Shown here in pieces: positions 21,606-51,795 of a stretch of DNA of 61,368 nt. Numbering within the stretch: position 1 is the stretch's first letter; each line of letters opens with the position of its first letter. Below the pieces are notes generated by a model. The model saw only the letters and a list, made by a program, of their open reading frames with translations. It searched no databases and was not told the origin of the DNA. The DNA comes from an uncultured Dehalococcoidaceae bacterium (lineage in GTDB: Bacteria; Chloroflexota; Dehalococcoidia; Dehalococcoidales; RBG-16-60-22): NCBI GenBank assembly GCA_964503235.1, contig CAZCZJ010000003.1:1-61368 (forward strand), written 5' to 3'. The position numbers and the translations under genes were made by a program.

Positions 21606-21638
21606 AAACCACAGCTGCAAATAAACAAGGAGAAACTA

Positions 21639-26617: not shown

Positions 26618-26637
26618 ATTCTTTCACGAATATATAG

Positions 26638-28963: not shown

Positions 28964-29015
28964 GATTAAAGCCGTACCCCGCTTATCTATGAATTGGAAA
29001 TATACTAATATACTA

Positions 29016-29063
29016 GTTATTTTATGTAAGATGCAAGTCACAATTGTGTAAGAATTTGGTAAA
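29016..29063 (-). promoter_or_regulatory. phased direct-repeat array, minus-strand orientation
   Basis: On the plus strand, GTTAT 29016, GTAAG 29026, GTAAG 29048 and GTAAA 29059, with steps of 10, 22 and 11 nt. It lies just upstream of the peptidase operon. Confidence 0.4.
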
Positions 29064-36124: not shown

Positions 36125-36739
36125 TTAGAACGCGAACCTGTTCCTCAGTTTTTCGCCGAGTTTCCTGCCTTTGATATATAACCCGTTAAATTTTCTGAGC
36201 AAGGCAGTTTGAAGGCTTTGAGCCTTTACCTCTCCATACCTTTCATAGAAAACGATATCTCCAAGGGGTTTCCTCGCAAAGACTTTGTCCTTTACCTCAG
36301 CTCGATATCCTAACGGTGTATAAGCAATAACTCTGATTTCATCGGGGACTCCCAGAGCTTCCTTCACCTGCTTCTCGTCGAAAGCTCCTATCCAGCAGGT
36401 CCCCAGCCCCAAGTCAGTGGCGGCCAGTATCAGGTGTTCCAGGGAAATCCCGATGTCCAGCATATAGGTGTCCGTGCCGGGCTTGCGGCCGGATTCTTCA
36501 GGGTTGATACACGCTACGATGATGATCGGCGCCTCGCTGAGCCATTTATTTTCTTCCCCGGCAAGCTTTGCTTTAATGTCCTGGTCTGTGACGATAATGT
36601 ACTGCCAGCATTGACGATTTTTAGGTGAGGGCGCCAGCCGGGCCGCTTCCAGAACGGTTTTCAGGTACTCATCGGGTACCGGAACAGATTTATATTTTCT
36701 GATACTACGCCTTTTTTTTACTACTTCCATGAATTCCAT
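36125..36739 (-). CDS. nitroreductase-family flavoprotein
   Basis: RRSIRKYKSVPVPDEYLKTVLEAARLAPSPKNRQCWQYIIV. Confidence 0.8.
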   Translation of the reverse strand: MEFMEVVKKRRSIRKYKSVPVPDEYLKTVLEAARLAPSPKNRQCWQYIIVTDQDIKAKLAGEENKWLSEAPIIIVACINPEESGRKPGTDTYMLDIGISLEHLILAATDLGLGTCWIGAFDEKQVKEALGVPDEIRVIAYTPLGYRAEVKDKVFARKPLGDIVFYERYGEVKAQSLQTALLRKFNGLYIKGRKLGEKLRNRFAF

Positions 36740-36799
36740 AACAATCTCCTCCAGGTTTTGCTCGGAAGCCGGACTTGCGCCTCCGACAAATTGCCGCGC

Positions 36800-39196
36800 T
36801 CAACCGATGTGCCGGTACAGGAACGAGCCAGCTGCCATGCAAACCCACTTGGGCATTACATACGAGAATAACCGCATTGCCCGATATTTTACGCTGCTCT
36901 CGGTAACGTTGAAAAAGCCCCTTTTAACCGGAAAATAATAGTAAGGTGATGGAATCGCTTTTGCTCCCCACCTGCTTTTAAAGGTGCGGAGTCCTTCGTC
37001 TTCCGGTGAGCAACGCCCGAAATCAAAGTATTTATAATTATGGGCACAGGCATATTTGATTGCCTCCCAGATTATCAGGTGGTTGGGACGTTTCTTAAGG
37101 TATTTCTCGTCGGAAGCATTGTATTTATAATAAATGGTATCACCGTGGCCGAGAAAGACGACCCCGGCCACGGTCTTGCCTTCACATTCAGCTATCCCCA
37201 CGAAACCTTGGTTCTGCGAGATGACATTACGGAAAATACTTTTAAAGAAATTGCGCGGTTGCGGGAATACCCCGAGTTTCTTGCGCGTCGCCACATGCAA
37301 CTTGTAAAAAAGTTCTATATCTGCTTCGCTACTCGTCAGGCGAACGGTAACGTCGCGTTTCTCAGCCTGGTGGATACATCTTCGGACACTGTGGTGAAAC
37401 CTGGCGCTTAATGCCTTTAGGTCCGGCTCCAGTTCCAGCAGGTATCTGGTATAGTAGTCATAACTTATCAGTTTAAGCTTGGCTTCGGGAGATTCATTTT
37501 GCCATCCCCTGATTTCTACGTAAGAAGGGGCACCCTTACCCGTGTTAAGCTCGTTCTTGGTTTTGTTCAGTAGCAATTCAATATCCGCTTTGTCCCCGCC
37601 CAGGGGCCAGCAATAGTCAGAGAAGGGAAGGCAGACCAGCCTTCTCCCTGTGAATTTACACCGGATAAAGTAAAAGGGTATCGCCGCTCTCATCTGACCA
37701 TCCTCATTCTCGGTGATGTGGTATCGCGGCGAATAGTCATAAGTTTCTTTAATCACCCGGGCCCAGGCGGAAGTATGAAAAACTGTGCTGTTTTCCTGAC
37801 CGGTAACGAACTCGTCCCACATACTATCGGTTGTTGGATCGATAATCCTGACCGGGGTAGTCCTTTCGTCTTGGATAGGCTGAATCTGGCTGTACTTCCT
37901 GAAGGAAAGGAGGCTCCGTATCTTCTTTAGGAGTCTGCTATTTAATACTCCTGTCCTTTTCCAGAATCTAAGAAACAGGATGAATTCCACAATAAAGGGC
38001 AAAGGGTCATCGAGCGACGCAACCGCAAATTGTTTTTTCCCTTTAAGAGAATTCAGATATTTGCTCAAGCTCATCTTCCCTTTTAGAAGCTCGATAGCCA
38101 CGGTAGGAATATCCGTTATCAGGCGAATCCACTTAACTCCAACGCTATAACCATCCTGCTTCACCTTTTCTCCCAGAGTATCCAGATATGAAAGATAAGG
38201 CAGGTCTACCCCGGCGCCGATGGCTATGCTATGCCAACCCCAGGGCCTGGGATTTATTTCAATCAACTTGAATTGCCCATCTCTTGAATCCAGCATGAAT
38301 TCGACTTCGGATAGGCCGGAGTATCCCATTGCAGTAAGAATTTTCTTACTTGTTTCTACCAGCTGAGGTAAATATACGGTCTGAGCGTAAGTGGTAGCAT
38401 GGCCGAAATCCATGGGATGCTGTCTTGGACGCCGCACAGCTACATGAGCCAATAGCTTCCCGTCGCTGCATAAAGAACCGACCGAGAACAGGCCTTCGGT
38501 TCTCCCGGGTATTAATTCCTGTACCATGAGTGTTTGCGAAGGGTTGATTTCCGGAACCATTCTCGTATATTCGTCAATGAGCTGTTTTTTATTTTCAACA
38601 CGAATCGCCTTTTTCTGAGTCCTACTATAGAAAGGCTCTTTTATCGATGGTTTGAGAATGGCCGGAAATCTCACTTCCAGCTCTCTCACTTCCTCGATAC
38701 TGCGTGGATAACATGTGGCGGGTATGGCAATACCCACCTTCTCCGCCAGCTGGTAGGTCAGCATCTTATCATAAGCATATTTGACTATGTCCCATTCCGG
38801 AGTTGTCACCCTGTAATATTCTTCCAGTTGTTGCTTGTGTTGAGATAGGAAACAAACTGTTTCATCATCGTTGGGATATATTATCCATCCGTTAAGATTG
38901 TCTCTTATGGCTAGGTCAAGCAGGAACTTCAGGAAAATTGAATCTTCATTTACATAGGGACATTTTAGAAATTTCGTTTTATATCTTGAAAACCGGGCGA
39001 TACACTGCCTGTTACTAAGCACATAGACCGGGACACCCCGTTCACCAAGGCTCCTCACGATGCCGAGAGCTTGAAAAGTGCCTCCAATAATAACCGCCCC
39101 TACTTTTTCTTTCTGGTTGTCAGACATAGTTGACTTCTTTTTATTCAAATGGCTTTCTTTCATATTCTTCTTCACCGTATGATTCAATATCGCCAT
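36800..39196 (-). CDS. fusion protein: N-terminal ATP-grasp carboxylate-amine ligase and C-terminal FemAB/CelD-like transferase
   Basis: - N-terminal half: VIIGGTFQALGIVRSLGERGVPVYVL.., FPAILKPS.., LMVQELIPG.., SEVEFMLDSRDGQFKLIEINPRPWGW, the ATP-grasp pattern.
- C-terminal ~350 aa: FHTSAWARVIKETY.., FHHSVRRCIHQAEK.., LHVATRKKLGVFPQP.., YKYFDFGRCSPEDEGLRTFKSRWGA. Confidence 0.75.
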   Translation of the reverse strand: MAILNHTVKKNMKESHLNKKKSTMSDNQKEKVGAVIIGGTFQALGIVRSLGERGVPVYVLSNRQCIARFSRYKTKFLKCPYVNEDSIFLKFLLDLAIRDNLNGWIIYPNDDETVCFLSQHKQQLEEYYRVTTPEWDIVKYAYDKMLTYQLAEKVGIAIPATCYPRSIEEVRELEVRFPAILKPSIKEPFYSRTQKKAIRVENKKQLIDEYTRMVPEINPSQTLMVQELIPGRTEGLFSVGSLCSDGKLLAHVAVRRPRQHPMDFGHATTYAQTVYLPQLVETSKKILTAMGYSGLSEVEFMLDSRDGQFKLIEINPRPWGWHSIAIGAGVDLPYLSYLDTLGEKVKQDGYSVGVKWIRLITDIPTVAIELLKGKMSLSKYLNSLKGKKQFAVASLDDPLPFIVEFILFLRFWKRTGVLNSRLLKKIRSLLSFRKYSQIQPIQDERTTPVRIIDPTTDSMWDEFVTGQENSTVFHTSAWARVIKETYDYSPRYHITENEDGQMRAAIPFYFIRCKFTGRRLVCLPFSDYCWPLGGDKADIELLLNKTKNELNTGKGAPSYVEIRGWQNESPEAKLKLISYDYYTRYLLELEPDLKALSARFHHSVRRCIHQAEKRDVTVRLTSSEADIELFYKLHVATRKKLGVFPQPRNFFKSIFRNVISQNQGFVGIAECEGKTVAGVVFLGHGDTIYYKYNASDEKYLKKRPNHLIIWEAIKYACAHNYKYFDFGRCSPEDEGLRTFKSRWGAKAIPSPYYYFPVKRGFFNVTESSVKYRAMRLFSYVMPKWVCMAAGSFLYRHIG

Positions 39197-39226
39197 TCGT
39201 TATACATCCCCTCGGTTGTACACTCG

Positions 39227-39946
39227 TTAATTCGGGACGTCGTAAACCTCACTTCGGTCGCTTTTATCCTGGTGGTATTTCCTGAACGTAAAGAATAATA
39301 ATTTAAATCCCGGTGCATATCCAAACCGCTTAAATCCTGTCCTTTCGGCTCCTTTTATGGAGGCTATGTTGTCTTCTTCAATATAGCCTATTACCCATTT
39401 ATAGCCCCGCTCCTTGCAGATTCGCAAGCGGTCAATAATGATTGAAGGATGGAGTCGGTTACCCCGGAACTTCTCAAAAGTATAAGCTCCTGCCAGAATA
39501 ACCTCATCTTCCCGGAGAGTGTGGAACCATTTTCTAAACCCACCCTCTACTTTTTTATCATCCGTTGGGAATATAGTAAACGCTATGGTACATATCTCAT
39601 TGGTATCCACCGTCCTGGCAACATAGCAGTTTTGGTAGCCGTCTTCGAACATCCACTTACGAAATAGTACCTTTTCAACCATCTTCTTGCTTTCCGCTTT
39701 GGCTTTCTCCATTACCTCTTCCATGTCTTCTTTGGTGGCCAGCTTAAGAGTATATTTAATATTGGCTTCGATTTTTGGCAGTTCGAACTGCTCCAGATTC
39801 AAGGATAGACCAATCTGGTTAGACCGGCTGTATATATGCTGTTTCAACTTCTTCAGAAAAACTCTGAGGCCAGCGATTTTTAATAGCATGACTCCGTAGT
39901 ACATCAAGCCCAGGATTCTCTTTAATATTGCTTTTATTTTTTTCAT
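39227..39946 (-). CDS. GNAT-family N-acyltransferase (tentative)
   Basis: The C-terminal half has GNAT-like beta4-alpha3 features (AGAYTFEKFRGNRLHPSIIIDRL..GYIEEDNIASIKGAERTGFKRFG). This is a weak, motif-level call. Confidence 0.5.
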   Translation of the reverse strand: MKKIKAILKRILGLMYYGVMLLKIAGLRVFLKKLKQHIYSRSNQIGLSLNLEQFELPKIEANIKYTLKLATKEDMEEVMEKAKAESKKMVEKVLFRKWMFEDGYQNCYVARTVDTNEICTIAFTIFPTDDKKVEGGFRKWFHTLREDEVILAGAYTFEKFRGNRLHPSIIIDRLRICKERGYKWVIGYIEEDNIASIKGAERTGFKRFGYAPGFKLLFFTFRKYHQDKSDRSEVYDVPN

Positions 39947-39960
39947 CTTGGATGCATCCG

Positions 39961-41271
39961 TCAGCTCTTGAATTTGCTCTCCAGAATCCTCATTATAAAA
40001 TCCGTTATTGTTATGGAGTCGATATCTCCGGTTATGGATAACGCGCTTCTGGCCCCATCAGGCCAACGCCAGTACCTGAGCAAACAGGCATTCGATTGTT
40101 CGATTTTTTTTGAAAGAGCCTTTTCATCAGCCTGGTTGAACTTCTTTAAATCATCGAGATATATCCCGCACTCTTCCGGTTTTTTATTGAATTCTACAAT
40201 ATATCCTTCGCTCTGTAAAAACTTGACGGCTGTAGTAGAAGACCCTGCTGCTATGCCGATAACAGGTCGCACTGGACTTTCCAGGGAAAAATCTCTATCC
40301 CTGATGTACAGATAACTATCTAACCACCGGTCTGCAGATACGTTTACTTTACCGTTTTTTAATAATATTGTGGCTCGCTCGGAGCACTCCGCTTTTACTC
40401 CGTATCTGCCGTCACTCCGGTGTTCAATTTTGAAAGTGAACTTGTCTCTCTCCCGCCACCACTCGGCGATCTCTCTTAAAGTGGCTATCCAGACCGGCGG
40501 ATTTAATTCTCTGGCCTTTCGGAGTATTTTCACCAAACCGTTTTCACAGTGTATAATCCTTTCAGGATGTAACGAGAAATTAAACAGCTCACCGCTGTCA
40601 TATATCCGCTGCATGATTTCCACCCAGATATCACTGATTTTTTCCGAGTCGGTAATACCCATTCGTTCCACCAGTACTTCATCGTCTGGAATAGAAACCG
40701 GAATTTCTATCAACCCGTCTTCGAATCTAGGCAAAGATAAATACTTTTCGGCATCCAGCGGCTGGTAAAACTCCTTCAGGAGACTGAGGTTGTCCTTAAC
40801 ATACGTCGAGTAACTGTCGATATCGTTTACCGGCCACCACAAGGCGCGGCTGCTATCGTACAGGAAACCCAGGTCACTCAATATCGGCGTCGTGTGTTCA
40901 TTGGTCCGCAGAAAGGGAGCGCGAAAACCGACGAAAGGAACCTGGCATCGATTGAAGGTATGCATCGCTCTCTCAAAGTGATGGCCCATTTTTTCGTTAT
41001 CGACTACCTTATAGTCGATGTGTACGTATCCGTGTACCGCGAACTCGACTCCCCGATAGCTTAATTCCTTGATGTATCCCGGGTGTCTTGCCAGCACCAC
41101 TGCGGTAAGGGCAAATGTCGGGATACAGCCGGCGCTATGCGTTACATCGAAATATCTTTTAAGACAGCGTTCAAACTTCTTCGAGGAAATGCCGAAGCGG
41201 CACGCTACCGTAATAATCCTCGATATTAAATTTCTGAGTCCCCTTGATTTTGATAAAAAGCTTAATTTCAT
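39961..41271 (-). CDS. polysaccharide deacetylase-like protein (NodB-type N-terminal domain plus a C-terminal domain of unknown function)
   Basis: IPTFALTAVVLARHPGYIKELSYRGVEFAVHGYVHIDY and FVGFRAPFLR resemble the carbohydrate-esterase-4 pattern. The canonical TFDDG motif is not obvious. Confidence 0.6.
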   Translation of the reverse strand: MKLSFLSKSRGLRNLISRIITVACRFGISSKKFERCLKRYFDVTHSAGCIPTFALTAVVLARHPGYIKELSYRGVEFAVHGYVHIDYKVVDNEKMGHHFERAMHTFNRCQVPFVGFRAPFLRTNEHTTPILSDLGFLYDSSRALWWPVNDIDSYSTYVKDNLSLLKEFYQPLDAEKYLSLPRFEDGLIEIPVSIPDDEVLVERMGITDSEKISDIWVEIMQRIYDSGELFNFSLHPERIIHCENGLVKILRKARELNPPVWIATLREIAEWWRERDKFTFKIEHRSDGRYGVKAECSERATILLKNGKVNVSADRWLDSYLYIRDRDFSLESPVRPVIGIAAGSSTTAVKFLQSEGYIVEFNKKPEECGIYLDDLKKFNQADEKALSKKIEQSNACLLRYWRWPDGARSALSITGDIDSITITDFIMRILESKFKS

Positions 41272-41374
41272 CTCGGCCGCGGCATCACCACCAAGTCAGC
41301 AAAAAGCTGGAGTTCGGCTCTCTGAGAGCCAATATTCCCTATACTAACTCTTGTGCCATTACCTCCTTAAATAT

Positions 41375-44300
41375 TCACGCTTTGTTGCTCAGTCGTCCCA
41401 CTGCCGCCTCAATACTTTCATTTATTTTTTCCGCCAATAGCGGTACAAAAGGCTCGGCGAGCATCTGCCTGGGATAAACCGGCAGTTTATAAAGCTCAAT
41501 CCCCAAGGGGGCTATTTCACCCCAGTTCACTTCCGGCAGAGTATTTTCTTTGTATTCCTTAGCCGGAACAATATTTACAATCGGCCAGGGATAGGCATCT
41601 TTCGGCACGTATTCATTGGCTGCCCTGTTGTTAGTTTCTTCTAACAAATAGAGCAAAGAATGGTACCCGTTATCTTTACGAAACTCGAACCCGCTTGATT
41701 TTACCGTCTCAATTAGCAACGCTAGCCTCTCTTTAATAAGGTCCATCCTCCGTTTCATGAAATTTTTTTCTCCGGATAGTAATCTTCCCCGGTTAAAATT
41801 GATTTTCTGAAGATAGTAATAAATCTTATCAAGTATCGACCGGTCTGGCATATTACCCCAATTGTAGGTCTCCATAAAAATCAACATAGCCACTTCCTGC
41901 CCCCGGGCACGCAATCGCTGAGCCATCTCCAGCGCCACCGTACCGCCCATGCAAAAGCCACCCAGCAAATACGGGCCGGCGGGTTGAACAGCCAGAATCT
42001 CCTGCAGGTACTGCTCCGCCATGTCCTCAATACGGGTGTGAAAAGGCTGTTCTCTATCCAGCCCGCGTGATTGCAGCCCATACACCGCCTGTTCCGGCTT
42101 TAAGTACCGCAGCAGGTCAGAATAGATTAAAATATTACCTCCGCCGGCGTGCGCGAGATAAAGAGGCAATCCGGAATCTCCAGGCTTCATCTCTACCAGG
42201 CATTGCCAGGAATCCGCGCCCCCACTGTCGCGGATAAGCTTGGCCAGTGTATCAATCGTAGGTGCTTTATAGAGAGTGGCTATGGGGAAATTTTTCTGGA
42301 ATATCCTCTCGATTTTGCTGAACAGTTGAACGGCTATCAGGGAGTTGCCGCCCAGATCAAAAAAGTTATCGGTGTTGCTCACATGCCTGACGCCGAGTAC
42401 ATTCTGCCATATCGCGGCGAGAGTCTCTTCTACACTTGTCTCGTGATTTTCAAAAACATTCGCTGGCGGCTTATTCCTCGATTCCTGCACTGGCCGAATC
42501 GCTTCATCCCCCTCATTTATCGAAACGGCTTCGCCGGAGGCTATTTCAGGTATCTGTTGGCCGGTGTCAACCCAGTAGCGCTGGCGTTCGAAGGGATAGG
42601 TCGGCAAAGATACGCGATGCCGGAGCTCGTCTTGGTAAAAACCGTACCAGTCCACTTCAAGTCCGGCCATCCAGAGCTGCCCGAGCGTGTTCAGGATATA
42701 AGCCATATCTGAGGTTGCCTCTTTCGGGTGATGCGTCGAGGCGAGTATAACGCTTTCCGGTGTTGCCGCCGGATGCTGCCTGGCCAGTGTGCTGAAGGTG
42801 TTACCCGGCCCGACCTCAAGAATAACCCTGTCCGGTTCTTTTAATAATTCCTGCAGGCAATCGGAAAACCGTACCGTCTGCCGCAGTTGCCTGCCCCAGT
42901 ACTCCGGATTGGTGGCCTCCTCCGAGGTAATCCAGGTGCCGGTAACGTTGGAAAGGAATGGAATCTGCGGCGCATTCAGTTTGACCTGCCCTACCTCTTC
43001 GACAAGGGCACTCACTACGGGTTCCATCATTCCGGAATGAAAAGCATGAGAAGTGTGTACGTGACGGCAGGTTACCTCTTTATCGGCTAGCTGCTTTTCC
43101 AGTGCGCCAACAGCCTCTTTTTCTCCGGAAACAACGCAAAGCGAAGGCCCGTTGATAACCGCCAGCGATAGCCTTTCATCAAGTAACTGTCGCACCTCTT
43201 TTTCGGGGAGAAACACGGCCAGCATCGAGCCTGCAGGCATTCCCTGCATCAACCGGCCCCGGGCAGCCACCAGTGCCAGGGCGTCCTCGAGAGAAAACAC
43301 CCCCGCCAGGCAGGCGGCAACATATTCCCCGATACTGTGCCCTACCATCGCCGCCGGGTGCACACCCCAGGATTTCCATAGCTGCGCCAGGGCGTATTCG
43401 ATGGTGAACAGCGCCGGCTGGTTCATGGATGTCTGCATCAGCTTTTGCGTCGCGTCGGCGGTAACCGGTCCCTCCGGATACATTATGTCACGTAAGTCCA
43501 GTTTAAGGTGGGGTCGGAGAATCTCCGAGCAGCGGTCTATCTGCTCCCGAAAAACCGGCTCGGTATCATAGAGTTCCCGCCCCATGCCGACATACTGGGA
43601 GCCCTGCCCTGAGAATATGAACGCCACGTCGCGTTTACCTTTATCTCCGGTGGAATCCAGCACCCGTTTCTTATCAACCATCCTCAGGGTTTCTATAGCA
43701 TCGTCGATATCCTGACAGACCAGCATACGCCGGTGATTAAACTGTTTCCGCCCGATCTGGAGCGTATAGGCGATATCGGCGAGGTTAGCTCCCCCGTGAT
43801 TCCTCAGGTATTCCTCCAGGTTTACCGTCGCAGTCTCCAGAGCCGTGGCCGTCCGGGCTGAGAGGAGTAATAACTGCCAGCCCCGCGACTTTCCTGAATC
43901 ATCTACTCTGGGAGCTTCTTCCAGGATGACATGGGCGTTGGTACCACCAACACCGAAAGAACTCACCCCCGCCCGGCGCGGTATGCTGTCGGGTTGCCAC
44001 TCCGCTAATGCCGTATTGACGTAGAAAGGACTGCTCGCAAAATCAATATCATGATTTGACTCTTTATAGTTTATATTGGGAACCAGCATTTTCTTATGGA
44101 GCATCATGGCGGTCTTTATCAGCCCCACTATACCGGCGGCGGCGTCCAAGTGCCCGATGTTAGCCTTGATAGAGCCGATTGCGCAGGATTTTTCCACGGT
44201 AGCCCGGTTATGAAATGCCTGTGTCAGTGCCGCGATCTCAACGGTATCCCCCAGATATGTCCCGGTACCGTGGGTTTCAATATAGGAAATGGTTTCCGGC

Positions 44301-45223
44301 TTGACATCTGCATTGGCCAGAGCCATGGCGATAACTTCGGCCTGACCATCGACACTGGGAGCGGTAAAACTGACCTTGTTAGCGCCGTCATTATTCATGG
44401 CGAGCCCTTTTATAACGGCGTAAATCTGGTCTCCGTCTCTTAGCGCATCCTCAAGGCGTTTCAGCAAAACGACTGCGGCACCATTACTGAAGACGGTACC
44501 ACTAGCCTGCGAATCGAAGGGCCGGCAATGGCCGTCGGAAGATACTATCTCACCTTCCTGATATAGATAACCACTGTTCTGCGGACAGTTGACAAAGCTG
44601 CCGCCAGCTAACGCCATGTCACACTGGTAGCTCATCAGGCTGTCAAAGCTCTGGCAGACAGCTACCAGCGACAATGAACAGCCGGTATAAAGACTCACGC
44701 TCGGGCCCCTGAGATTTAATTTATACGAGACACGTGTGGCTAAATAGTCAGGGGCATTTGCCAGATTAGTCTGGTGTTCACCGAAAGTCTTGATCAGATT
44801 TCGGTTACAGGCTATGATATTGGAGAAATAGGTATTGTATCCCGTACCGCCATAGACAGCAATCAACCCTTTATAAGTATCGGGATTATAACCCGCGTCT
44901 TCAAGGACTTCCCAGGCGCACTCAAGAAAGAGACGCTGCTGTGGGTCAATTAGTGAAGCTTCTCGGGGGCTGATGCGAAAGAAGCCGGCATCGAATTTAT
45001 CGACATCATTAATCATCCCCCTGGCCCTGACATAGTTAGGGCTGTTTCTTAATTCTTCACTTATGCTCGCGTCCAGGTCATTATCACCCATAAAAGTGAT
45101 GGACTCGACGCCCTCGCACAGGTTACGCCATAGCTTTTCGGTATCAGGCGCGCCGGGGAATCTCCCCGCCATACCGATGATAGCGACTCCAGATAAATTA
45201 GGATTACCCATAGAATCGGTCAT
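41375..45223 (-). CDS. type I polyketide synthase module KS-AT-T-TE, with no KR/DH/ER
   Basis: - KS: DPQQRLFLE, TGCSLSLVA (Cys), HGTGT, NIGHLDAAAG.
- AT: FIFSGQGSQYVGMG, GHSIGEYVAA, HAFHS (malonyl-type motif).
- Carrier: FFDLGGNSLIAVQL (PCP-like).
- TE: GPYLLGGFCMGGTVALEMA, where Cys (codon 41951-41953) sits in place of the GxSxG serine. Confidence 0.9.
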   Translation of the reverse strand: MTDSMGNPNLSGVAIIGMAGRFPGAPDTEKLWRNLCEGVESITFMGDNDLDASISEELRNSPNYVRARGMINDVDKFDAGFFRISPREASLIDPQQRLFLECAWEVLEDAGYNPDTYKGLIAVYGGTGYNTYFSNIIACNRNLIKTFGEHQTNLANAPDYLATRVSYKLNLRGPSVSLYTGCSLSLVAVCQSFDSLMSYQCDMALAGGSFVNCPQNSGYLYQEGEIVSSDGHCRPFDSQASGTVFSNGAAVVLLKRLEDALRDGDQIYAVIKGLAMNNDGANKVSFTAPSVDGQAEVIAMALANADVKPETISYIETHGTGTYLGDTVEIAALTQAFHNRATVEKSCAIGSIKANIGHLDAAAGIVGLIKTAMMLHKKMLVPNINYKESNHDIDFASSPFYVNTALAEWQPDSIPRRAGVSSFGVGGTNAHVILEEAPRVDDSGKSRGWQLLLLSARTATALETATVNLEEYLRNHGGANLADIAYTLQIGRKQFNHRRMLVCQDIDDAIETLRMVDKKRVLDSTGDKGKRDVAFIFSGQGSQYVGMGRELYDTEPVFREQIDRCSEILRPHLKLDLRDIMYPEGPVTADATQKLMQTSMNQPALFTIEYALAQLWKSWGVHPAAMVGHSIGEYVAACLAGVFSLEDALALVAARGRLMQGMPAGSMLAVFLPEKEVRQLLDERLSLAVINGPSLCVVSGEKEAVGALEKQLADKEVTCRHVHTSHAFHSGMMEPVVSALVEEVGQVKLNAPQIPFLSNVTGTWITSEEATNPEYWGRQLRQTVRFSDCLQELLKEPDRVILEVGPGNTFSTLARQHPAATPESVILASTHHPKEATSDMAYILNTLGQLWMAGLEVDWYGFYQDELRHRVSLPTYPFERQRYWVDTGQQIPEIASGEAVSINEGDEAIRPVQESRNKPPANVFENHETSVEETLAAIWQNVLGVRHVSNTDNFFDLGGNSLIAVQLFSKIERIFQKNFPIATLYKAPTIDTLAKLIRDSGGADSWQCLVEMKPGDSGLPLYLAHAGGGNILIYSDLLRYLKPEQAVYGLQSRGLDREQPFHTRIEDMAEQYLQEILAVQPAGPYLLGGFCMGGTVALEMAQRLRARGQEVAMLIFMETYNWGNMPDRSILDKIYYYLQKINFNRGRLLSGEKNFMKRRMDLIKERLALLIETVKSSGFEFRKDNGYHSLLYLLEETNNRAANEYVPKDAYPWPIVNIVPAKEYKENTLPEVNWGEIAPLGIELYKLPVYPRQMLAEPFVPLLAEKINESIEAAVGRLSNKA

Positions 45224-45226
45224 GTA

Positions 45227-47176
45227 TCAACTTCCCTTAGATGATAGCCTCTGGCGTGAAAAGGATTTTCTTCTTCGTTGCGCCCGCTCCTGGATATTAT
45301 GAAAAGACGGCTGGCTGCCCCGGTTCTGACTCAGGTATTTCGCCATTGCCCTGATATTGGGATATTGAAATAGCTTGACGACGGGCATCTCGATTTGGAA
45401 TGTCTCCCGCACCAAGGTGATTAATTTTACGGCTAAAATAGAAGTACCACCCAGGTCAAAAAAGTTGTCCTCGATGCCGATCTCTTCAAGACCTAATACG
45501 CGGCACCACAAATCGTTCAGGACTTTCTCCTGGTTCGTGGAAGGACTAATATAGGTCTGCTCCATTTCGGGTCGTGCCCGGTCAGGTTCGGGAAGTGCCC
45601 CCCTATCTATTTTACCATTATGTGTTAAAGGTAACTCGTTTAGCGTTACAAATACGGCCGGCAACATATAATCGGGCAGTCTACCCGCCAGGAATCGGCG
45701 TAGTGACTCCACCGTGGGTTTTTGACCCGCTGGTGGCACGATATATCCGCCAAGACGCATATTCCCGAAACCATCTTGTTTAACGGTAACCGCGGCGTCC
45801 CGTACCTGCGGGTGTTGCCTGAGAACAACTTCGATTTCACCGATTTCAACCCGGTTCCCGTAGAGTTTGATCTGTCCATCGAGTCTGCCTTCAAACCGGT
45901 AGTTGCCATCGGGCATCAAGTTACCCTGGTCGCCCGTTTTGTAGATTATTTCCTGTCGGTCTATCACCAGGGGATTCTGAACAAAGGAAACTTCATTTAA
46001 TGCCGGCGCATCATAGTAGCCCTTTGTCATAAAAGGTGTCTTGATATAAATCTCTCCGGTTTCACCAACCGGGCTGAGCTTACCGTTATTGATAACCAGC
46101 GCCTCCGTATCCGGTATCGGTTTGCCAATCGGTACTATCTCGCCAGGTGCAAAATTATTATCGCTGATACGATAGAACAACTTGGCGAGAGTTGTCTCGG
46201 AAGGCCCGTAAAGATTAACAAGCTCGACACGGTTCCCGCAGACCTGCCTCCAGCAAACAACATCATTTCCGTACAATGCCTCACCGGCTATCAGAGCATA
46301 TTTCAGATCCGGCAGTGCGTCACTATCGCTGTTTGTTTCCTTAATCTCTCTTGTCAGCAGGCGAAAAACGGTCGGGACGATGTGCGTTAGTGTTATGCGG
46401 TTATCCCGCATCCAGTAAAGCAGCTTCCTTGGATTATGTCTGGTTTCTTCATCCGGGATGCACAGAGTGCCGCCGGCGAACAATGGCACGAAGATATCCC
46501 TCAGGCTCACATCGAAGGTCACCGCGGAAAGCAGACTTATCCGCACGTCCTGATTTAAATTGAATTCACCAATCTCCCAGTGGATAAAGTGGCTCAGCCC
46601 CTTCTGGGAGCCGAGAATAACTTTTGGTTCTCCGGTGGAGCCGGAAGTGGTAACAAGGTAGCAACCGTCATCCGGCCGGGAAGCGATGGGTGGATTGTCA
46701 TCCGGAAAGCTGGCATTATTTGTTATGGCGTTGCCGCCGGGTAGGTTTTTCAGATTCAGGTTGCCAGCCTCGTCAATAACCAGTAGATAACTCGGATTGA
46801 TAGGTGGTTTAAATCTCTGTAGCTTTGCCAGGATTTCATTCTCAAGAACCGTGCTGGTGATGAAGATATTCGGCTTTGTCTTACTCAGGATATTACCCAG
46901 GCGTGCATCCGGGAACTCCCTGTTCAGCGGCATGAATACGGCGCCGGCCTTGAGTGCGCCCAGTACGGCCATCACATACTCAATCGACGCATTAAAATAA
47001 AGCCCGATAATTTCCTGAGCACCTACACCATTCTTGATTAGAGCATGCGCAATCCGGTTAGCATTGGCGTTTAGCTCGCTATAAGTGACGCCGCGCGAAC
47101 CATCATCAATGGCCGTATTCGCCGGAAATCTCCCGGCGGCTCTTTCAAATAAACTGTGTATTATCCTGTTATCCAT
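45227..47176 (-). CDS. stand-alone NRPS adenylation-thiolation (A-T) didomain
   Basis: A3 LVTTSGSTGEPKV, A4 FDVSL, A5 NLYGPSETT, A7 YKTGDQG, A8 GRLDGQIKLYGNRVEIGEIE, A10 NGKIDR. T domain FFDLGGTSILAVKL. There is no C, E or TE domain. The stop lies 3 nt before the PKS start. Confidence 0.9.
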   Translation of the reverse strand: MDNRIIHSLFERAAGRFPANTAIDDGSRGVTYSELNANANRIAHALIKNGVGAQEIIGLYFNASIEYVMAVLGALKAGAVFMPLNREFPDARLGNILSKTKPNIFITSTVLENEILAKLQRFKPPINPSYLLVIDEAGNLNLKNLPGGNAITNNASFPDDNPPIASRPDDGCYLVTTSGSTGEPKVILGSQKGLSHFIHWEIGEFNLNQDVRISLLSAVTFDVSLRDIFVPLFAGGTLCIPDEETRHNPRKLLYWMRDNRITLTHIVPTVFRLLTREIKETNSDSDALPDLKYALIAGEALYGNDVVCWRQVCGNRVELVNLYGPSETTLAKLFYRISDNNFAPGEIVPIGKPIPDTEALVINNGKLSPVGETGEIYIKTPFMTKGYYDAPALNEVSFVQNPLVIDRQEIIYKTGDQGNLMPDGNYRFEGRLDGQIKLYGNRVEIGEIEVVLRQHPQVRDAAVTVKQDGFGNMRLGGYIVPPAGQKPTVESLRRFLAGRLPDYMLPAVFVTLNELPLTHNGKIDRGALPEPDRARPEMEQTYISPSTNQEKVLNDLWCRVLGLEEIGIEDNFFDLGGTSILAVKLITLVRETFQIEMPVVKLFQYPNIRAMAKYLSQNRGSQPSFHNIQERAQRRRKSFSRQRLSSKGS

Positions 47177-47189
47177 TTTTATCCTGAAA

Positions 47190-48533
47190 TCACATAAAAT
47201 CCGTTTTTACTTTCGAGATTACATAGTGCCGCTTACCCGCCTCGGTGGGTTCGATATTATCTACCTGTATTACGGATATGTTCATCATACCGCCGAAAGA
47301 TGGCTGCAATTCATTACGGATATCTTCTAACAGAGCCGGAGCAACTCTTTGCCGACATAATAGACGTACCTCTAAATGTTCTCTATCTGGTTGATAAATC
47401 TGGAATTGCTGTACCCCATATTGATATTTGGATATAATTATATCATCGACGATTACTGAGTGAACAATCTGGCCGTCAGGTCTTACAAGAAGATCATTAT
47501 TCCGTCCGACTATCTCTTGGAGGACAGGCATACCCCGCCCGCAGGAACAGCCCCCGGTTTCATAAATCCCCACGTCGCCGTTTTTATATCTGATAAATGG
47601 CATGGCGTACTGGTTCAAGGCCGTGACGACCACCTCTCCCATCTTTCCATCATCGACGACCTGCCCACTTTCTACCAGTTCAAGGTAGCGCTCTTCGTTC
47701 ACGTGGAGACCTCCTTGGGGACACTGGTAAGCATAACTGAATATCTCCAGGGAGCTGTAATGGTCGGCCACCGGTGCGTGAAAAATCTCCTCGAAAAGAC
47801 CCCGCATTGAAGGCGTTATTTTCTCAGCCGTGGTTTCTATGAGCCTGGGTTTAATAGACGTGATATGGCGCTCTTTAAGATAATGAGCGAATACGGATAG
47901 TGCCTGCGGATAGACTCTGATTATTTCTGGTTGCCACCTGATAAGCATTTCGGTAAACGCTTGCATTTTGTTTTCGGTCATCGTCCGGGCATTCAAGTAC
48001 CGGTATCGCTTGATTTTGGCAGCCAGGCGGTCTTTCCATTTCCACTCCGGATAATCCTGTAAGGAGCCTGTAATCCAGGCCATCTTATTTCCCCGTCTTA
48101 CCCCGTACCAGCCGCGGCACCGGGCTTCAACGGCATAGCTCCAGTACGCCGCGGAGCTATCCATGATGAACCGCATCGGTTCTCCGGTAGAACCGGATGT
48201 TTTCCCCTCGAAGACACCTCCTCGATAAACGGTTGAAACGAGGTCTCCACGATGGTTTTTCACATCAGTCCTGGTTAGGAAGGGGAGAGCCTGAAAGTCT
48301 TTCAAGCTTTTAATGTCCTGCGGGTGAATACCTTCACGCTGGTAGCGCTGACGGTAAAACGGCACGTATTCATAGGCGTAGCTCACCAGCCGCTGGATTT
48401 TCTTTAATTGTACCTCTTCCAACTCGCCCCTTGTAAGCCATTGGGAACTTTCCAGCTCCTTCAGACAACGCCGGATTTCCTGGTGCCCCGGTAACAGGTA
48501 CTTCCTTAAAAACTGGTAAACACTCGAATACAT
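47190..48533 (-). CDS. CapK/PaaK-like adenylate-forming ligase (phenylacetate-CoA ligase family), copy 1
   Basis: 447 aa. Canonical AMP motif GKTSGSTGEPMRF, plus the family features YRQRYQREGIHP..LPFLTR and C-x-CGRG. Confidence 0.8.
   Translation of the reverse strand: MYSSVYQFLRKYLLPGHQEIRRCLKELESSQWLTRGELEEVQLKKIQRLVSYAYEYVPFYRQRYQREGIHPQDIKSLKDFQALPFLTRTDVKNHRGDLVSTVYRGGVFEGKTSGSTGEPMRFIMDSSAAYWSYAVEARCRGWYGVRRGNKMAWITGSLQDYPEWKWKDRLAAKIKRYRYLNARTMTENKMQAFTEMLIRWQPEIIRVYPQALSVFAHYLKERHITSIKPRLIETTAEKITPSMRGLFEEIFHAPVADHYSSLEIFSYAYQCPQGGLHVNEERYLELVESGQVVDDGKMGEVVVTALNQYAMPFIRYKNGDVGIYETGGCSCGRGMPVLQEIVGRNNDLLVRPDGQIVHSVIVDDIIISKYQYGVQQFQIYQPDREHLEVRLLCRQRVAPALLEDIRNELQPSFGGMMNISVIQVDNIEPTEAGKRHYVISKVKTDFM
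48273..48403. repeat. 131-nt patch ~95% identical to 49690-49820, inside paralog 1
   Basis: Hand alignment shows 7 mismatches in 131 nt, including a 48-nt perfect run (CTGAAAGTCTTTCAAGCTTTTAATGTCCTGCGGGTGAATACCTTCACG). Confidence 0.85.
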
Positions 48534-48609
48534 AATCCCTATTTACGTGTCGTCTATTTCACGTGCCTTATTCTCTTTGCCTGATATTCTATAGGTACAG
48601 CAAGTGTAA

Positions 48610-49950
48610 CTAATAGCCATCCGGCTTAACTTCCGAAATAATGAATCGATGCTTGCCCGCTGCTGTCAATTCAATGTGGTCTACCATCTTTACAGATATT
48701 TGCATTTTCTTACCGAAATATGGCTGTAATTCATTCCTGATATTTGTTTCCAGCTTGATTGCATTTGGTTTCTGCTTGCATAACAATCGAACCTCGAGGT
48801 GTTGCTGATCTGGTTGATAAATCTGGTATCGGTATACTTCCGGTATTTTCTCTACGACGTCATCAACACTGGTCCAATGAATAACCTTTCCATCAGGGTT
48901 CACAAGTAAATCGCAGTCTCGTCCTACCACCTCACGGAGAACCGGCATACCCCGACCGCACCTACAGTCCGTGGGATCGATAATCCCCACATCATTGTTC
49001 TTATACCTGATAAAGGGCATAGCATACTGGTTTAATGGTGTGACAACAATATCTCCCATCTGGCCGGGAGGGACAACTTGGCCGCCGGATACCAGTTCGA
49101 GATAGCGGTTTTCTATTACATGTAGGCTCCCCTCAGGACACTGATAAGCAATAATGCCTGATTCCCAAGAACCATAACCGTCGGCTATCGTTGCTTGAAA
49201 AACGTGCTCGAATAACTGCCGTTGGTGATGTGTCATTTTCTCAGCACAGACCTCGATTAGCTTAGGTCTGATAGACGGCAATTTATGTTCCTTAAGATAT
49301 CTGGCGAAAATGTAGAGAGCTGTCGGATATGCCCTAAACATATCCGGCTTCCATCTTGATAACATCTCGGCGAAGTCCCGCATTTTCAAATCGTCCATTG
49401 TACGGCTGTTTAAATACCGTCGTCGACGTATTTGAGCACGGAGACGTGAACGCCAGTTCCAGCTCGGAAAATCTTTTTGATTGCCCCAGACCCAAGCTAT
49501 CTTGTCCCCCGGTGTGATCCCATACCAGCCGCGGCACCGGGTTTCAACCGCAGAGCATTCCATTAATGAAGACTTGTCCATTATAAAACGCATCGGATGC
49601 CCGATGGAACCACCAGTAGTATACTCGTAAGTACTGCCTTGATATACCGAAGATACAAGTAATTTCAGGTTATTATTCACATCATCCCGGGTTAGGAAGG
49701 GGAGAGACTGAAAGTCTTTCAAGCTTTTAATGTCCTGCGGGTGAATACCTTCACGTTGATAGCGCTGCCGGTAAAACGGCACGTTTTCATAAGCATAGCT
49801 CACCAGCCGCTGGATTTTCTCGAGCTGTATTTCTTCCAATTCGTATCTTGTCAGCCACTCTGTTTTTTCCAACTCCTCCATGCAGCGCCGGATTTCCTTA
49901 TGCCCCGGTAGCAGGTACTTCTTTGATAACTCGTAAAGATAGGAATACAT
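48610..49950 (-). CDS. CapK/PaaK-like adenylate-forming ligase, copy 2 (divergent AMP motif)
   Basis: 446 aa, collinear with copy 1. The N-terminal ~95 aa are nearly identical. The AMP/P-loop motif reads TTGGSIGHPMRF rather than TSGSTGEPMRF. Confidence 0.8.
   Translation of the reverse strand: MYSYLYELSKKYLLPGHKEIRRCMEELEKTEWLTRYELEEIQLEKIQRLVSYAYENVPFYRQRYQREGIHPQDIKSLKDFQSLPFLTRDDVNNNLKLLVSSVYQGSTYEYTTGGSIGHPMRFIMDKSSLMECSAVETRCRGWYGITPGDKIAWVWGNQKDFPSWNWRSRLRAQIRRRRYLNSRTMDDLKMRDFAEMLSRWKPDMFRAYPTALYIFARYLKEHKLPSIRPKLIEVCAEKMTHHQRQLFEHVFQATIADGYGSWESGIIAYQCPEGSLHVIENRYLELVSGGQVVPPGQMGDIVVTPLNQYAMPFIRYKNNDVGIIDPTDCRCGRGMPVLREVVGRDCDLLVNPDGKVIHWTSVDDVVEKIPEVYRYQIYQPDQQHLEVRLLCKQKPNAIKLETNIRNELQPYFGKKMQISVKMVDHIELTAAGKHRFIISEVKPDGY
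49690..49820. repeat. 131-nt patch ~95% identical to 48273-48403, inside paralog 2
   Basis: See 48273-48403. Confidence 0.85.
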
Positions 49951-49993
49951 ATTACCTTCTCTCCTGGCTATAGTATTTAACGATTAAGTTTAA

Positions 49994-50809
49994 TTATTGA
50001 AGAAAATAGTACCGGTTATAATACCCCGCTCTCCGCCACGGGTCAATAAATAATCTAATAAACCATCTCTGCCTTAGCAATATGAAATTCATTTTCGCTA
50101 ATATGGATAGACTGAGGGAAAGAAGGCCCCTTGAGAGGCTGTTCTTTTGTAACAAGGATGGAAGTTTATCGTACAGGTTATAAAGTAAGGAGGGAAACAT
50201 ACTATAGTTATTATAAATCAGCTTAAATCCGCTGGTCTGTAGTAATTTGCTATATTCATCGTCGGTACGGAAAACGCACGGATTGCTACTATCTCCATAC
50301 CTTCGCTGCTTCAATGCGACTGAATCTCTCGTTATCAATAACCCATCTTTGTTTAAATGATGCCTTAATTGTTTTAGCAGATCTGAAACCGAATCATCAT
50401 CCATATACATCAGGCAACCACCGATATGGATTATATCAAAGTTTCGATTTTCTAAATAAGAATAGTCGGTTATATCTTGACACAAGAACGTTACGTTGCT
50501 AATCCCTTTATCACTGGCAAACTTATTTGCATACTTTATGAATGTCGGCGAAAAATCAATAGCGACAACGCTTTTACATTTTTTCGCGAAATCTATTGCA
50601 TAACTTCCGATATTGCACCCCAGGTCCAGAACAGACATAGATTGATCAAACTTTACCAGACGGAATAAGTGTGCTATCTGCATCTTGTAACGGTAGTTTA
50701 AGCGTACTTGGTCGTCGGACATGGTAGTGCCTATTGCATAATAATTGGAATGGATGTTCTTTGCCTTCTTTTCCCAGAATTGCTGCATATCATTACAACT
50801 AGGTTCCAA
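49994..50809 (-). CDS. class I SAM-dependent methyltransferase
   Basis: Motif I VLDLGCNIGSY, and post-I VVAIDFS. Confidence 0.8.
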   Translation of the reverse strand: MEPSCNDMQQFWEKKAKNIHSNYYAIGTTMSDDQVRLNYRYKMQIAHLFRLVKFDQSMSVLDLGCNIGSYAIDFAKKCKSVVAIDFSPTFIKYANKFASDKGISNVTFLCQDITDYSYLENRNFDIIHIGGCLMYMDDDSVSDLLKQLRHHLNKDGLLITRDSVALKQRRYGDSSNPCVFRTDDEYSKLLQTSGFKLIYNNYSMFPSLLYNLYDKLPSLLQKNSLSRGLLSLSLSILAKMNFILLRQRWFIRLFIDPWRRAGYYNRYYFLQ

Positions 50810-50877
50810 TTTAGCCTCTCCAACAACATCTGCTACAACGTAATTAAAAAAGAATCTGATATTTTATATATTTTGAA

Positions 50878-51624
50878 TTAAGGTTCCCATTCGAAATATA
50901 CGGGTTCAAAATATTGTCCTTCTTTAACAAACGCAGCTTGGTATCCCTCATTGACGTTCAAATCGCAAATTGACCACCGGGCGGCAGCTTCTGAATCTCC
51001 TTCAATACTTACCAATCTAGCCGGCTCATCCCGCGCCAGCGATACATCGAATTTATCCAGCGGGTAAGACAGGCCGTCTCCGGTAGCTTTAATAAAGGCC
51101 TCCTTGCGCGTCCAGCAGTTGAAAAACGCCTGCCTCTTCCCACTCTCAGGCAGTATGCGGAAAACCTCGTTCTCTCCCGGAGAGAAGAAACTCATAGCGA
51201 TTTGATCCATCTCAGGCATGTCTCGTATCCGCTCGATGTCAATACCTATTTCACGGTTCCTGATAAAAGCGTATATTGCCAGCCCCTCCGAGTGGGATAA
51301 ATTAAAATGAATCTTTTTCCGGTTAAAATCATCGGCGAGTGCCGGCTTGTCATTCTTCCCATAAGAAAATAGCACTCTTTCTGGTTCAACCCCAAGATAA
51401 CAACCCAGTAGTATTCTCAATATCCCCCGTCGTACGATAAACCGGTTTCTCTCCTTTTCAAAATGAAATCGCCCGGCCCTTTTTCTCTCACCGGCAACCA
51501 GCAGACTGTGATACGGCGATATCGTTCTATCCAGAAAAGCACTCCAGATATGGACTTCGTCTCTGGCTAATTCAAGGTCTGTCGATTTGACTATATTTAA
51601 TTGACGGTTCATCTTTATATCCAC
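50878..51624 (-). CDS. Sfp-type 4'-phosphopantetheinyl transferase
   Basis: FNLSHSEGLAIYAF, IGIDIERI, WTRKEAFIKATG. Confidence 0.85.
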   Translation of the reverse strand: MDIKMNRQLNIVKSTDLELARDEVHIWSAFLDRTISPYHSLLVAGERKRAGRFHFEKERNRFIVRRGILRILLGCYLGVEPERVLFSYGKNDKPALADDFNRKKIHFNLSHSEGLAIYAFIRNREIGIDIERIRDMPEMDQIAMSFFSPGENEVFRILPESGKRQAFFNCWTRKEAFIKATGDGLSYPLDKFDVSLARDEPARLVSIEGDSEAAARWSICDLNVNEGYQAAFVKEGQYFEPVYFEWEP

Positions 51625-51795
51625 TGAAGGGGAAATCCCAACACCTTTAGCATAAAATCATAAGGTTAGAAAAAAGTTAGGTTTGGGTTATAAGACGGAT
51701 AAAATGTAGATGAAGTGAGCCATGGGGCTTGAATCCATTCTCGCCATTCAAATACAAATTCATAGAAATATTCTTGTTAAAATGATTTATGTCAA

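Follow-up and report, generated by a model that had tools for sequence, protein, structure and literature searches.

Two adjacent genes in an uncultured Dehalococcoidaceae bacterium encode an adenylation-carrier (A-T) loading protein and a polyketide synthase (PKS) with ketosynthase (KS), acyltransferase (AT), carrier (T) and thioesterase-like (TE-like) domains. We see about an even chance that they form a complete, functional minimal NRPS-PKS line whose product is passed to a surface glycan. The predicted chemistry is well supported as far as an amino-beta-ketoacyl thioester. Because many bacteria carry this cassette within their surface-sugar gene clusters, the line probably makes a decoration for the cell-surface glycan, with transfer to the glycan suggested by gene context. 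Within the window, the whole stretch of 61,368 nucleotides analysed here, the two genes and their parts are as follows.

45227..47176 (-), A-T loading gene P0001, 649 aa (ORF and Pfam)
45611..47149 (-), adenylation domain, residues 10-522, with A4 FDVSL at 46502-46516 and code DVRHLALLAK
45332..45520 (-), carrier domain T1, residues 553-615, with the serine of GGTS (PF00550, E=6.5e-18)
45231..45238 (-), SD-like AAGGGAAG in the terminal part of the A-T gene (read in the sequence; putative function)
41375..45223 (-), PKS gene P0002 with KS, AT, T and TE-like domains, 1282 aa (ORF, Pfam and similarity to ClbI)
43904..45187 (-), ketosynthase, residues 13-440 (Pfam 13-386), with C182, H318 and H358 (Pfam and triad)
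42734..43621 (-), acyltransferase, residues 535-830 (Pfam 535-809), with GHSIGE and HAFHS (Pfam and motifs)
42233..42424 (-), carrier domain T2, residues 934-997, with FFDLGGNSL and Ser961 (PF00550)
41378..42202 (-), TE-like domain, residues 1008-1282 (Pfam Thioesterase 1020-1146), with Cys1091, Glu1118 and Tyr1250-Pro1251

P0001 matched the Pfam families AMP-binding (residues 10-388), AMP-binding_C (447-522) and PP-binding (553-615), and passed the NCBIfam amino-acid adenylation model TIGR01733 (341 bits, cut-off 317). The FDVSL motif reported in the first-pass annotation was located at residues 221-225. The specificity code, whose extraction had also been proposed there, was derived by anchoring on motifs and aligning with MAFFT and reads DVRHLALLAK, beginning with Asp235 and ending with Lys517. 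This code class was found in about 115 of 120 homologues, reaching down to 38% identity, and the code had no match among the recovered textbook codes. Asp235 and Lys517 support an amino-acid substrate, while Arg239 and His278 suggest that the substrate is polar and perhaps acidic. An alpha-amino acid had been proposed earlier; the amino acid is upheld, but the code with Arg239 is unusual and does not decide which carboxyl is activated. Therefore, gamma-amino-beta-keto is only one possible description of the predicted product.

The stop codon of P0001 (TGA, 45229-45227) and the start codon of P0002 (ATG, 45223-45221), both read directly, are separated by 3 nt as previously annotated, and the SD-like AAGGGAAG (45238-45231) is located 7 nt upstream of the ATG. 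The same 3-nt gap was found in three related loci (L089, L095 and L096), and in two others the genes either overlap by 4 nt (L092) or are fused into one gene (L003). Tight coupling of the A-T and PKS genes is thus conserved among relatives. The pair is not a one-off: it is a member of a large, conserved and uncharacterised family of more than 100 clusters, including the fused form.

The Pfam domains and intact motifs bear out the proposed layout, an A-T protein followed by a non-reducing KS-AT-T-TE module. All 107 homologues retain the condensation-competent KS triad (C182, H318, H358), and the phosphopantetheine serine of T2 (Ser961) is likewise invariant among homologues. The AT motifs GHSIGE (residues 628-633) and HAFHS (726-730), the latter earlier linked to malonyl-CoA, were located and are near-invariant among homologues; ClbI has the same motifs, and we likewise infer a malonyl-specific AT. 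GC content is 0.55-0.60 across the AT region and 0.44-0.49 in its flanks. The motif FFDLGGNSL of T2 is present (954-962), but it has little diagnostic value for the PCP-like carrier that had been read from it, as T2 scored alike against carriers placed after A domains (median 62 bits) and against those placed after AT or KR in related PKS modules (median 64 bits), and the carrier of ClbI also has GGHSL. No further Pfam domain was detected in P0001 or P0002 at E<=0.01, and C, KR, DH and ER domains are absent from both proteins. The linkers at residues 890-930 of the PKS and 616-649 of the A-T protein are too short, and therefore no domain is hidden there. These results agree with the earlier statement that C and beta-processing domains are missing and dispose of one of its reservations, a C or KR domain concealed in the linkers. 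No condensation domain was found across the whole 93%-complete genome, in which the KS of P0002 is the only type I KS.

A KS phylogeny had been proposed as a check on this layout. In a context-labelled tree, the KS of P0002 fell in a clade of six A-T-fed KSs (support 0.996) within an 18-member clade (support 0.992) containing 17 NRPS-fed and no PKS-fed KSs. The KS thus groups with NRPS-fed KSs, as the layout predicts, and this grouping carries modest weight because 85% of the sampled KSs were NRPS-fed anyway. KS identity was 72-73% for three PKSs whose A-T loaders carry the DVRH code and 55-57% for five PKSs with other loaders. P0002 is a mosaic: its KS follows the loader type, whereas its T-TE part follows a different lineage.

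Among characterised proteins, the closest relative is ClbI of the colibactin pathway (Escherichia coli pks island), to which P0002 is 42% identical over 1003 residues (KS-AT-T). The two KSs share 50% identity, the highest value among the colibactin KSs. The best solved-structure matches (8xju/8xjy/8xjz) are presumably ClbI and ClbH, judging from chain lengths. ClbI and P0002 both have a Cys-His-His KS, a GHSxGE/HAFHS AT and a GGxSL carrier, and in both a KS fed by an aminoacyl-bearing NRPS carrier works without reducing domains. However, ClbI has no terminal TE and hands its product to ClbJ, whereas P0002 ends in a TE-like domain. ClbH has an A-C-A-T organisation and is 28% identical to P0001. 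Furthermore, ClbI belongs to a toxin pathway and P0002 sits in a glycan locus.

The terminal domain, at first taken for a plain TE release domain, proved to have a Cys nucleophile instead of Ser and to lack the canonical His. It matched PF00975 (E=4.5e-25), and the best fold matches of its AlphaFold model (pLDDT 86.7) were TEs of NRPSs and PKSs. Among these, the TE of AB3403, an Acinetobacter baumannii C-A-T-TE protein (4zxh), ranked best (sequence E=4e-34; fold E=8e-17, TM 0.70). Both domains have a GxCxG cysteine nucleophile, which lies in GGFCMGG in the TE-like domain (Cys1091, codon at 41951-41953) and is shared by all 107 homologues. AB3403 retains the catalytic His (LPGDH), whereas LPVYPRQML of the TE-like domain aligns with LPGDHSSIM of AB3403, placing Tyr1250-Pro1251 where the His is expected; in addition, the TE of AB3403 closes an NRPS module and the present one a PKS module. 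The catalytic His of the loop before the last helix is absent from all clade members, while cyanobacterial KS-AT-T-TEs, by contrast, retain Ser and His. The only invariant His of the domain is H1025, in an HGxGG motif. Fold and nucleophile motif fit a canonical Ser/Cys-His-Asp TE, but the catalytic His of the triad is missing. Loss of the His could also reflect the use of another catalytic base instead of a transferase role.

Three nearby genes are associated with the pair.

50878..51624 (-), Sfp/HetI-type PPTase in the co-directional gene array (PF01648; NF042922 HetI E=5e-61, below cut-off)
49994..50809 (-), class I SAM methyltransferase accompanying the A-T(DVRH)/PKS pair (Pfam)
39961..41271 (-), CE4 deacetylase/DUF2334-like gene, immediately following the PKS gene (Pfam)

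The PPTase, which had been described as adjacent, is actually three genes upstream; L001, L003 and L089-L096 also have a PPTase upstream of the PKS. The best solved relatives of the methyltransferase are plant phosphoethanolamine N-methyltransferases (1e-16) and NTMT1, which are primary-amine N-methyltransferases. Its homologues adjoin the pair in three loci (L092, L095 and L096), a weaker homologue does so in L003, and the gene set PPTase-methyltransferase-A-T-PKS recurs among clusters. CE4 homologues (53-70% identical) adjoin the PKS in L001, L090 and L092, and a gene of the same family is close to the PKS in L096. An MBOAT was seen near the fused homologue of L003.

The window encodes a UDP-sugar dehydrogenase, Bac_transf, GFO, a hexapeptide transferase, DegT, GT4s, Wzy, Wzx and a pyruvyl transferase, including WbpA/B/D/E-like genes (2,3-diamino uronic acid), together with two CE4 deacetylases. 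Of 11 homologous contexts, 10 had glycan genes no more than 10 kb away, an uncontrolled count with no background rate for arbitrary genes. This recurrence fits the decoration role proposed in the first-pass annotation, and context suggests the transfer step. L096, a close context, is surrounded by redox and regulator genes, accompanied by a single GT and a deacetylase, and no sugar genes were seen around L094. Between L092 and the window, the sugar genes are 84-94% identical but the PKS block only 43-72%. The cassette behaves like an interchangeable part of glycan loci, variable in a serotype-like manner. It is patchily distributed (3 of 41 genomes of relatives), and a small HTH regulator of its own accompanies it in several loci. 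The window also contains candidate acyl-to-sugar transferases.

21639-22307, hexapeptide transferase
34871-36112 and 36800-39196, FemAB/GNAT-like genes

The TE-like domain is another candidate for moving the acyl group from carrier to sugar.

Following NRPS/PKS logic, the PPTase would prime both carriers and the A domain (DVRHLALLAK) would put one amino acid onto T1. The KS would accept the aminoacyl group from T1, the AT would charge T2 with malonyl, and a single decarboxylative condensation would give amino-beta-ketoacyl-S-T2. More speculatively, the co-travelling methyltransferase may methylate the free amine, and the acyl group may move to Cys1091 of the TE-like domain via thioester exchange. 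As the general-base His is missing, this domain might not hydrolyse the acyl group; it may instead hand it to an amine or hydroxyl, most likely of an amino sugar of the Wzx/Wzy-locus glycan.

The line might alternatively release a free small metabolite, a possibility that we consider rather unlikely yet worth keeping in mind. The TE-like domain would then yield a pyrrolidine-2,4-dione (tetramic-acid-like) ring by intramolecular attack of the amine, or a beta-keto acid decarboxylating to an aminoketone, and the presence of the cassette in glycan loci would stem from co-regulation or from a common envelope role, with no covalent attachment. A free gamma-amine could cyclise onto the thioester with no need of an acceptor. 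P0002 does end in a TE-fold domain, the surroundings of L096 and L094 are poor in glycan genes, the cassette brings its own regulator in several loci, and ring-forming release is described for the Cys-TEs ObiF and SulM (PMC6668435, PMC11298585). However, the His kept by these ring-forming enzymes is missing here, in most contexts the cassette is bordered by glycan genes, and exhaustive N-methylation of the amine, if it occurs, might block the lactam. A strained-ring Cys-TE of the ObiF/SulM type was rejected, since only the Cys is shared and the predicted substrate is beta-keto rather than beta-hydroxy/beta-amino acyl-peptide. ObiF (6n8e) matched the A-T protein and was not among the PDB matches of the TE profile.

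It is unlikely that the product serves as an aglycone or primer, with the GTs of the locus adding sugars to the small amino-keto acid, free or lipid-linked, as an anchor or reducing-end cap. GT4 genes directly adjoin the cassette in L003, L092 and L095, and Pks13, whose TE ranks among the best fold matches of the TE-like domain, uses that TE as an acyltransferase to a sugar. On the other hand, Bac_transf, a standard initiating transferase, together with Wzx and Wzy of the window already explains undecaprenyl-phosphate-primed assembly, and a lipid-forming module is absent. Pks13 itself (mycobacterial ACP-KS-AT-ACP-TE, with FadD32) likewise combines a single non-reducing module and a TE with a separate adenylating enzyme, and P0002 scored 615 bits, below cut-off, against the NCBIfam Pks13 model. 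Pks13 differs in its N-terminal ACP, FAAL loader, fatty-acyl substrates, Claisen condensation of two long chains and canonical Ser-His-Asp triad. A Pks13-type condensase was rejected because P0002 has no N-terminal carrier (its KS starts at residue 13), its loader is an amino-acid A domain, and its TE has a Cys and no His.

A decaying or inactive remnant gained by horizontal transfer is highly improbable: the patchy distribution, the GC island and the domain mosaicism of the PKS gene would fit it, but both ORFs are full length and equal in length to their homologues, all catalytic motifs are intact and conserved across 107 homologues, and the gene coupling is conserved.

A minimal line feeding the surface glycan has partial counterparts in other carrier-dependent glycan acylations (wfpC-G, Dlt and Vibrio cholerae O1 tetronate), where carrier machinery also lies inside the glycan assembly locus. 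D-alanylation of teichoic acids by DltA/DltC likewise uses an A domain and a carrier to deliver an aminoacyl group to an envelope polymer, and P0001 scored 214-222 bits, below cut-off, against DltA models. The Dlt system differs in having neither a KS/AT extension nor a TE-like domain, and Pfam detected neither DltB nor DltD in those window genes that were scanned. In Flavobacterium psychrophilum, wfpC-G encode an ACP, two KSs, a KR and a PglD-like transferase, for which addition of 3,5-dihydroxyhexanoyl to Qui2NAc4N has been proposed (PMC6519341). As here, carrier and ketosynthase chemistry sits inside a Wzx/Wzy O-antigen locus and is proposed to provide an amino-sugar N-acyl group (PMC6519341). 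However, the wfp enzymes are discrete type II proteins including a KR, with no adenylation domain or amino acid; their transfer step is given to the PglD homologue and not to a TE-like domain, and the pathway itself is predicted only.

Tentatively, the A-T/PKS pair, the PPTase and the amine-type methyltransferase may together constitute a widespread, undescribed module that grafts an N-methylated, charged amino-beta-ketoacyl group onto a Wzx/Wzy amino sugar through a His-less Cys S-to-N/S-to-O relay, which we regard as possible rather than probable. If true, this grafting module would represent a new class of glycan decoration as well as a new mechanism of assembly-line offloading.

The A-T/PKS line is a member of a large uncharacterised family. 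Its release domain is non-canonical, and its specificity code is conserved but has no assigned substrate. The two genes, with a purine-rich stretch ahead of the second, were located as follows:

45227-47176, minus strand: A-T loading protein P0001 (ORF, 649 aa; carrier domain T1)
41375-45223, minus strand: KS-AT-T-TE protein P0002, the PKS (ORF, 1282 aa; carrier domain T2)
7 nt 5′ of the P0002 ATG, within the 3′ end of the A-T gene, minus strand: purine-rich AAGGGAAG

The TGA stop codon of P0001 (45229-45227) and the ATG start codon of P0002 (45223-45221) leave a gap of 3 nt, as the first-pass annotation had stated. Pfam (E ≤ 0.01) detected AMP-binding, AMP-binding_C and PP-binding in P0001, and KS, KS-AT linker families, Acyl_transf_1, PP-binding and Thioesterase in P0002. 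No further domains were found in either protein at this threshold, and the linkers are too small for C, KR, DH or ER, in agreement with the earlier claim that C and beta-processing domains are missing. All of the motifs cited in that annotation were also found. The gene pair that it described is real; the architecture was interpreted correctly, and the role that it suggested is plausible.

The ten-position specificity code of P0001, DVRHLALLAK, was located with the motif anchors A4, A5 and A10 and by aligning the protein (MAFFT) to 157 A domains from the fetched loci. As a control, other domains in the alignment gave textbook codes (DVWHxSLxDK, DILQLGxIWK, DFWNIGMVHK, DLTKIGHVGK and VDWVVSLADK). 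Asp235 and Lys517 support an amino acid as the probable substrate. DVRHLALLAK matched none of the common codes recovered in the 157-domain alignment; it is nearest to the Ser type, from which it differs by Trp239→Arg, Ser301→Ala and Asp331→Ala. About 115 of the 120 homologues keep the pattern DVRH[LFM]A[LIVM]LAK, among them C-A-T forms and sequences as distant as 38% identity. The combination of Arg239 and His278 presumably resembles that of domains activating acidic amino acids via the side-chain carboxyl, such as those with DPRHSGVVGK and DARHVGIFVK, which we take to be microcystin codes. Literature searches for DVRHLALLAK, and for these two codes with their 7-8-letter forms, returned nothing. 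The conserved code without an assigned substrate exposes a gap in substrate-prediction tables. A stand-alone A-T protein with DVRHLALLAK was also seen in the cultured alphaproteobacterium Thalassobaculum sp. OXR-137 (CP139715.1, 3323316-3345142), flanked by an asparagine-synthase-like gene and a giant NRPS within a large NRPS-PKS cluster, and may offer a handle for experimental substrate identification.

In P0002, Cys182, His318 and His358 of the KS, GHSIGE and HAFHS of the AT, and Ser961 of the carrier are invariant or near-invariant among 107 full-length homologues. The closest characterised protein directly compared was ClbI of E. coli Nissle, a non-reducing KS-AT-T protein that receives from the NRPS ClbH (42% identity over 1003 residues; 50% between the KS domains). 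PDB entries 8XJU, 8XJY and 8XJZ are presumably ClbI/ClbH, judging from chain lengths only. In a tree of 120 KSs, each labelled by its upstream neighbour, the P0002 KS fell in a six-member clade (support 0.996), five members of which follow an A-T loader, the sixth being truncated by a contig end. It is nested in a clade of 18 (support 0.992), in which 17 members are NRPS-fed and none is PKS-fed. The KS phylogeny proposed in the first-pass annotation thus places P0002 among NRPS-fed KSs, a result of modest weight, since NRPS-fed KSs make up 85% of the sample. T2 had been described as PCP-like, and its FFDLGGNSL motif does resemble that of PCPs. However, T2 is equally similar to related PKS carriers and to true PCPs, so that the motif tells little and is not supported as a diagnostic sign of NRPS origin.

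The C-terminal release domain of P0002 has a thioesterase fold (model pLDDT 86.7), with the T-TE of AB3403 (PDB 4zxh) as its top match both by fold and by sequence. Its nucleophile, Cys1091, is invariant (107 of 107 homologues) and Glu1118 occupies the acid position, whereas the loop that carries the catalytic His in AB3403 (LPGDH) reads LPVYPRQML in P0002. Cys without His was found in all members of the clade of this domain. In contrast, cyanobacterial KS-AT-T-TE modules retain Ser and His, and some NRPS thioesterases have Cys and His. A profile of the domain matched 12,074 representative proteins at E ≤ 1e-30. Among the best 150 of these matches, Cys was present in 138 and most of the parsable ones lacked His; the domain terminates stand-alone, T-TE, A-T-TE-like, C-A-T or KS-AT-T, and multimodular architectures. 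An abundant class among the same 150 proteins has about 480-720 residues ahead of the domain and looks like A-T-TE. We infer that Cys1091 may act in a thioester relay and not in hydrolysis: the acyl group on it would pass to an incoming amine or hydroxyl.

Homologues of P0002 comprise more than 100 cluster representatives with 50-65% identity over the full length, including a fused A-T-KS-AT-T-TE member (P0033). The P0001 family parallels the P0002 family: at least 16 pairs of homologues have identical longest-contig sizes, which is only a proxy for sharing one contig. The lines use different loaders, among them A-T (DVRH-type code), C-A-T (Ser code) and formyltransferase-A-T (Gly code). One formyltransferase-A-T loader (L091:1508-5191; 1227 aa, Gly-type code) resembles the LgrA initiation module, which implies that an N-formyl-glycyl starter may feed the same type of PKS. 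Domain-wise comparison of the P0002 gene (window 41375-45223) with the homologues P0004, P0005 and P0010 gave discordant affinities. For the KS, identity is 72-73% to lines with the DVRH loader but 55-57% to other lines (57% to P0004), whereas the T-TE is closest to P0004 (76-77%), which comes from a same-family genome and has a C-A-T(Ser) loader, and is only 43-47% identical to lines sharing the A-T(DVRH) loader. These values make the P0002 gene a domain mosaic. For the AT, the best match (83%) is P0012, a homologue other than those that match the KS and TE best, and a GC island at 42400-44000 covers the AT domain and the KS-AT linker (0.55-0.60 vs 0.44-0.49 in the flanks); both features suggest probable intragenic recombination. 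The idea that T-TE identity follows a downstream deacetylase was rejected, as locus L090 has the deacetylase yet shows 47% TE identity.

The host genome surveyed (2.37 Mb, 93% complete) encodes no other type I KS than that of P0002, and no condensation domain was found in it; therefore, the line has no obvious missing partner. The T-TE part is present in three of 41 related genomes, including the host. Dehalococcoidales-like bacteria have small genomes with few secondary-metabolite genes, and the A-T/PKS line is the only megasynthase detected in this Dehalococcoidales-like genome. An archaeal host, considered because genomes are small and one homologue carries a Helarchaeota label, was ruled out: S19e was not found in the genome, and the host RpoB is 83-86% identical to Dehalococcoidales- or Chloroflexota-labelled proteins.

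The pair belongs to an 11-gene co-directional array at 36125-52818, the other genes of which are:

within 36125-52818, minus strand: two CE4 deacetylase-like genes, a HetI-like PPTase, a methyltransferase and two PaaK/CapK-like ligases
within 36125-52818, minus strand: an ATP-grasp/FemAB fusion, a nitroreductase and a 239-aa protein without a family match

Outside the array, the window consists of a Wzx/Wzy glycan locus with a UDP-sugar dehydrogenase, a GFO oxidoreductase, a hexapeptide transferase and a DegT aminotransferase (together a WbpA/B/D/E-like set), Bac_transf, GT4s, Wzy, Wzx and a pyruvyl transferase. Eleven loci were read for context. A PPTase lies ahead of the line in ten, and the order PPTase-methyltransferase-A-T-PKS is repeated in L092, L095 and L096. 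The A-T and PKS genes are separated by 3 nt in L089, L095 and L096, overlap by 4 nt in L092 and are fused in L003. By raw count, at least one glycan gene occurs within 10 kb in ten of the 11 contexts, and several (GTs, Wzx/Wzy, WbpB/D/E-like) in about seven. The sugar-nucleotide and initiating-transferase genes of window 18356-25239 share 77-94% identity with those of L092 (logan SRR22048037 contig), the sugar-nucleotide genes alone 84-94%, whereas the adjacent NRPS-PKS block shares only 43-72%. Such a contrast fits a putative variable decoration cassette in a conserved glycan backbone.

Several other features of these loci were observed. In the window alone, two PaaK/CapK-like ligase genes (47190-49950) separate the methyltransferase from the A-T gene, which it immediately precedes in L092, L095 and L096. 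In several loci, the PPTase-NRPS-PKS cassette is immediately preceded by a small HTH_17/MerR-like gene (L001:1464-4415, L092:1960-3900 and L094:599-3709). Next to this gene is a PqqD and ScmC-family set, which in L001 and L094 is accompanied by a radical-SAM/SPASM gene. A related NTP_transf_5/S24 peptidase/ABC block occurs at 25400-29041 of the window. A DUF1565/beta-helix surface-type protein is encoded near the cassette in the window (30374-34324) and in the fused locus (L003:18355-20328).

In the proposed mechanism, the PPTase would prime T1 and T2, the A domain would load one amino acid, and the KS and AT would add one malonyl-derived C2 unit to give an amino-beta-ketoacyl-S-T2. These steps follow from the intact motifs and textbook NRPS/PKS logic; the gamma-amino-beta-keto product expected in the first-pass annotation is one possible outcome. 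The free amine might then be methylated, a speculative step; the best solved relatives of the methyltransferase are phosphoethanolamine N-methyltransferases and N-terminal protein methyltransferases. Our main inference is that Cys1091 would accept the acyl group and hand it over to an amino sugar of the glycan. Alternatively, the product may be released as a free metabolite, cyclised or decarboxylated, or may serve as a primer or aglycone; a further rival reading takes the genes as an inactive remnant. N-acyl groups built by a carrier protein and KS have a proposed precedent in the O-antigen locus of F. psychrophilum (PMC6519341). A literature search for a described NRPS/PKS system in polysaccharide biosynthesis returned nothing specific.

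If the product is grafted on a surface glycan, the Cys/no-His domain would be a new kind of offloading catalyst. Thiotemplate lines would then supply side-chain diversity to glycans in a general and exchangeable way across many uncultured phyla, comparable to serotype cassettes.
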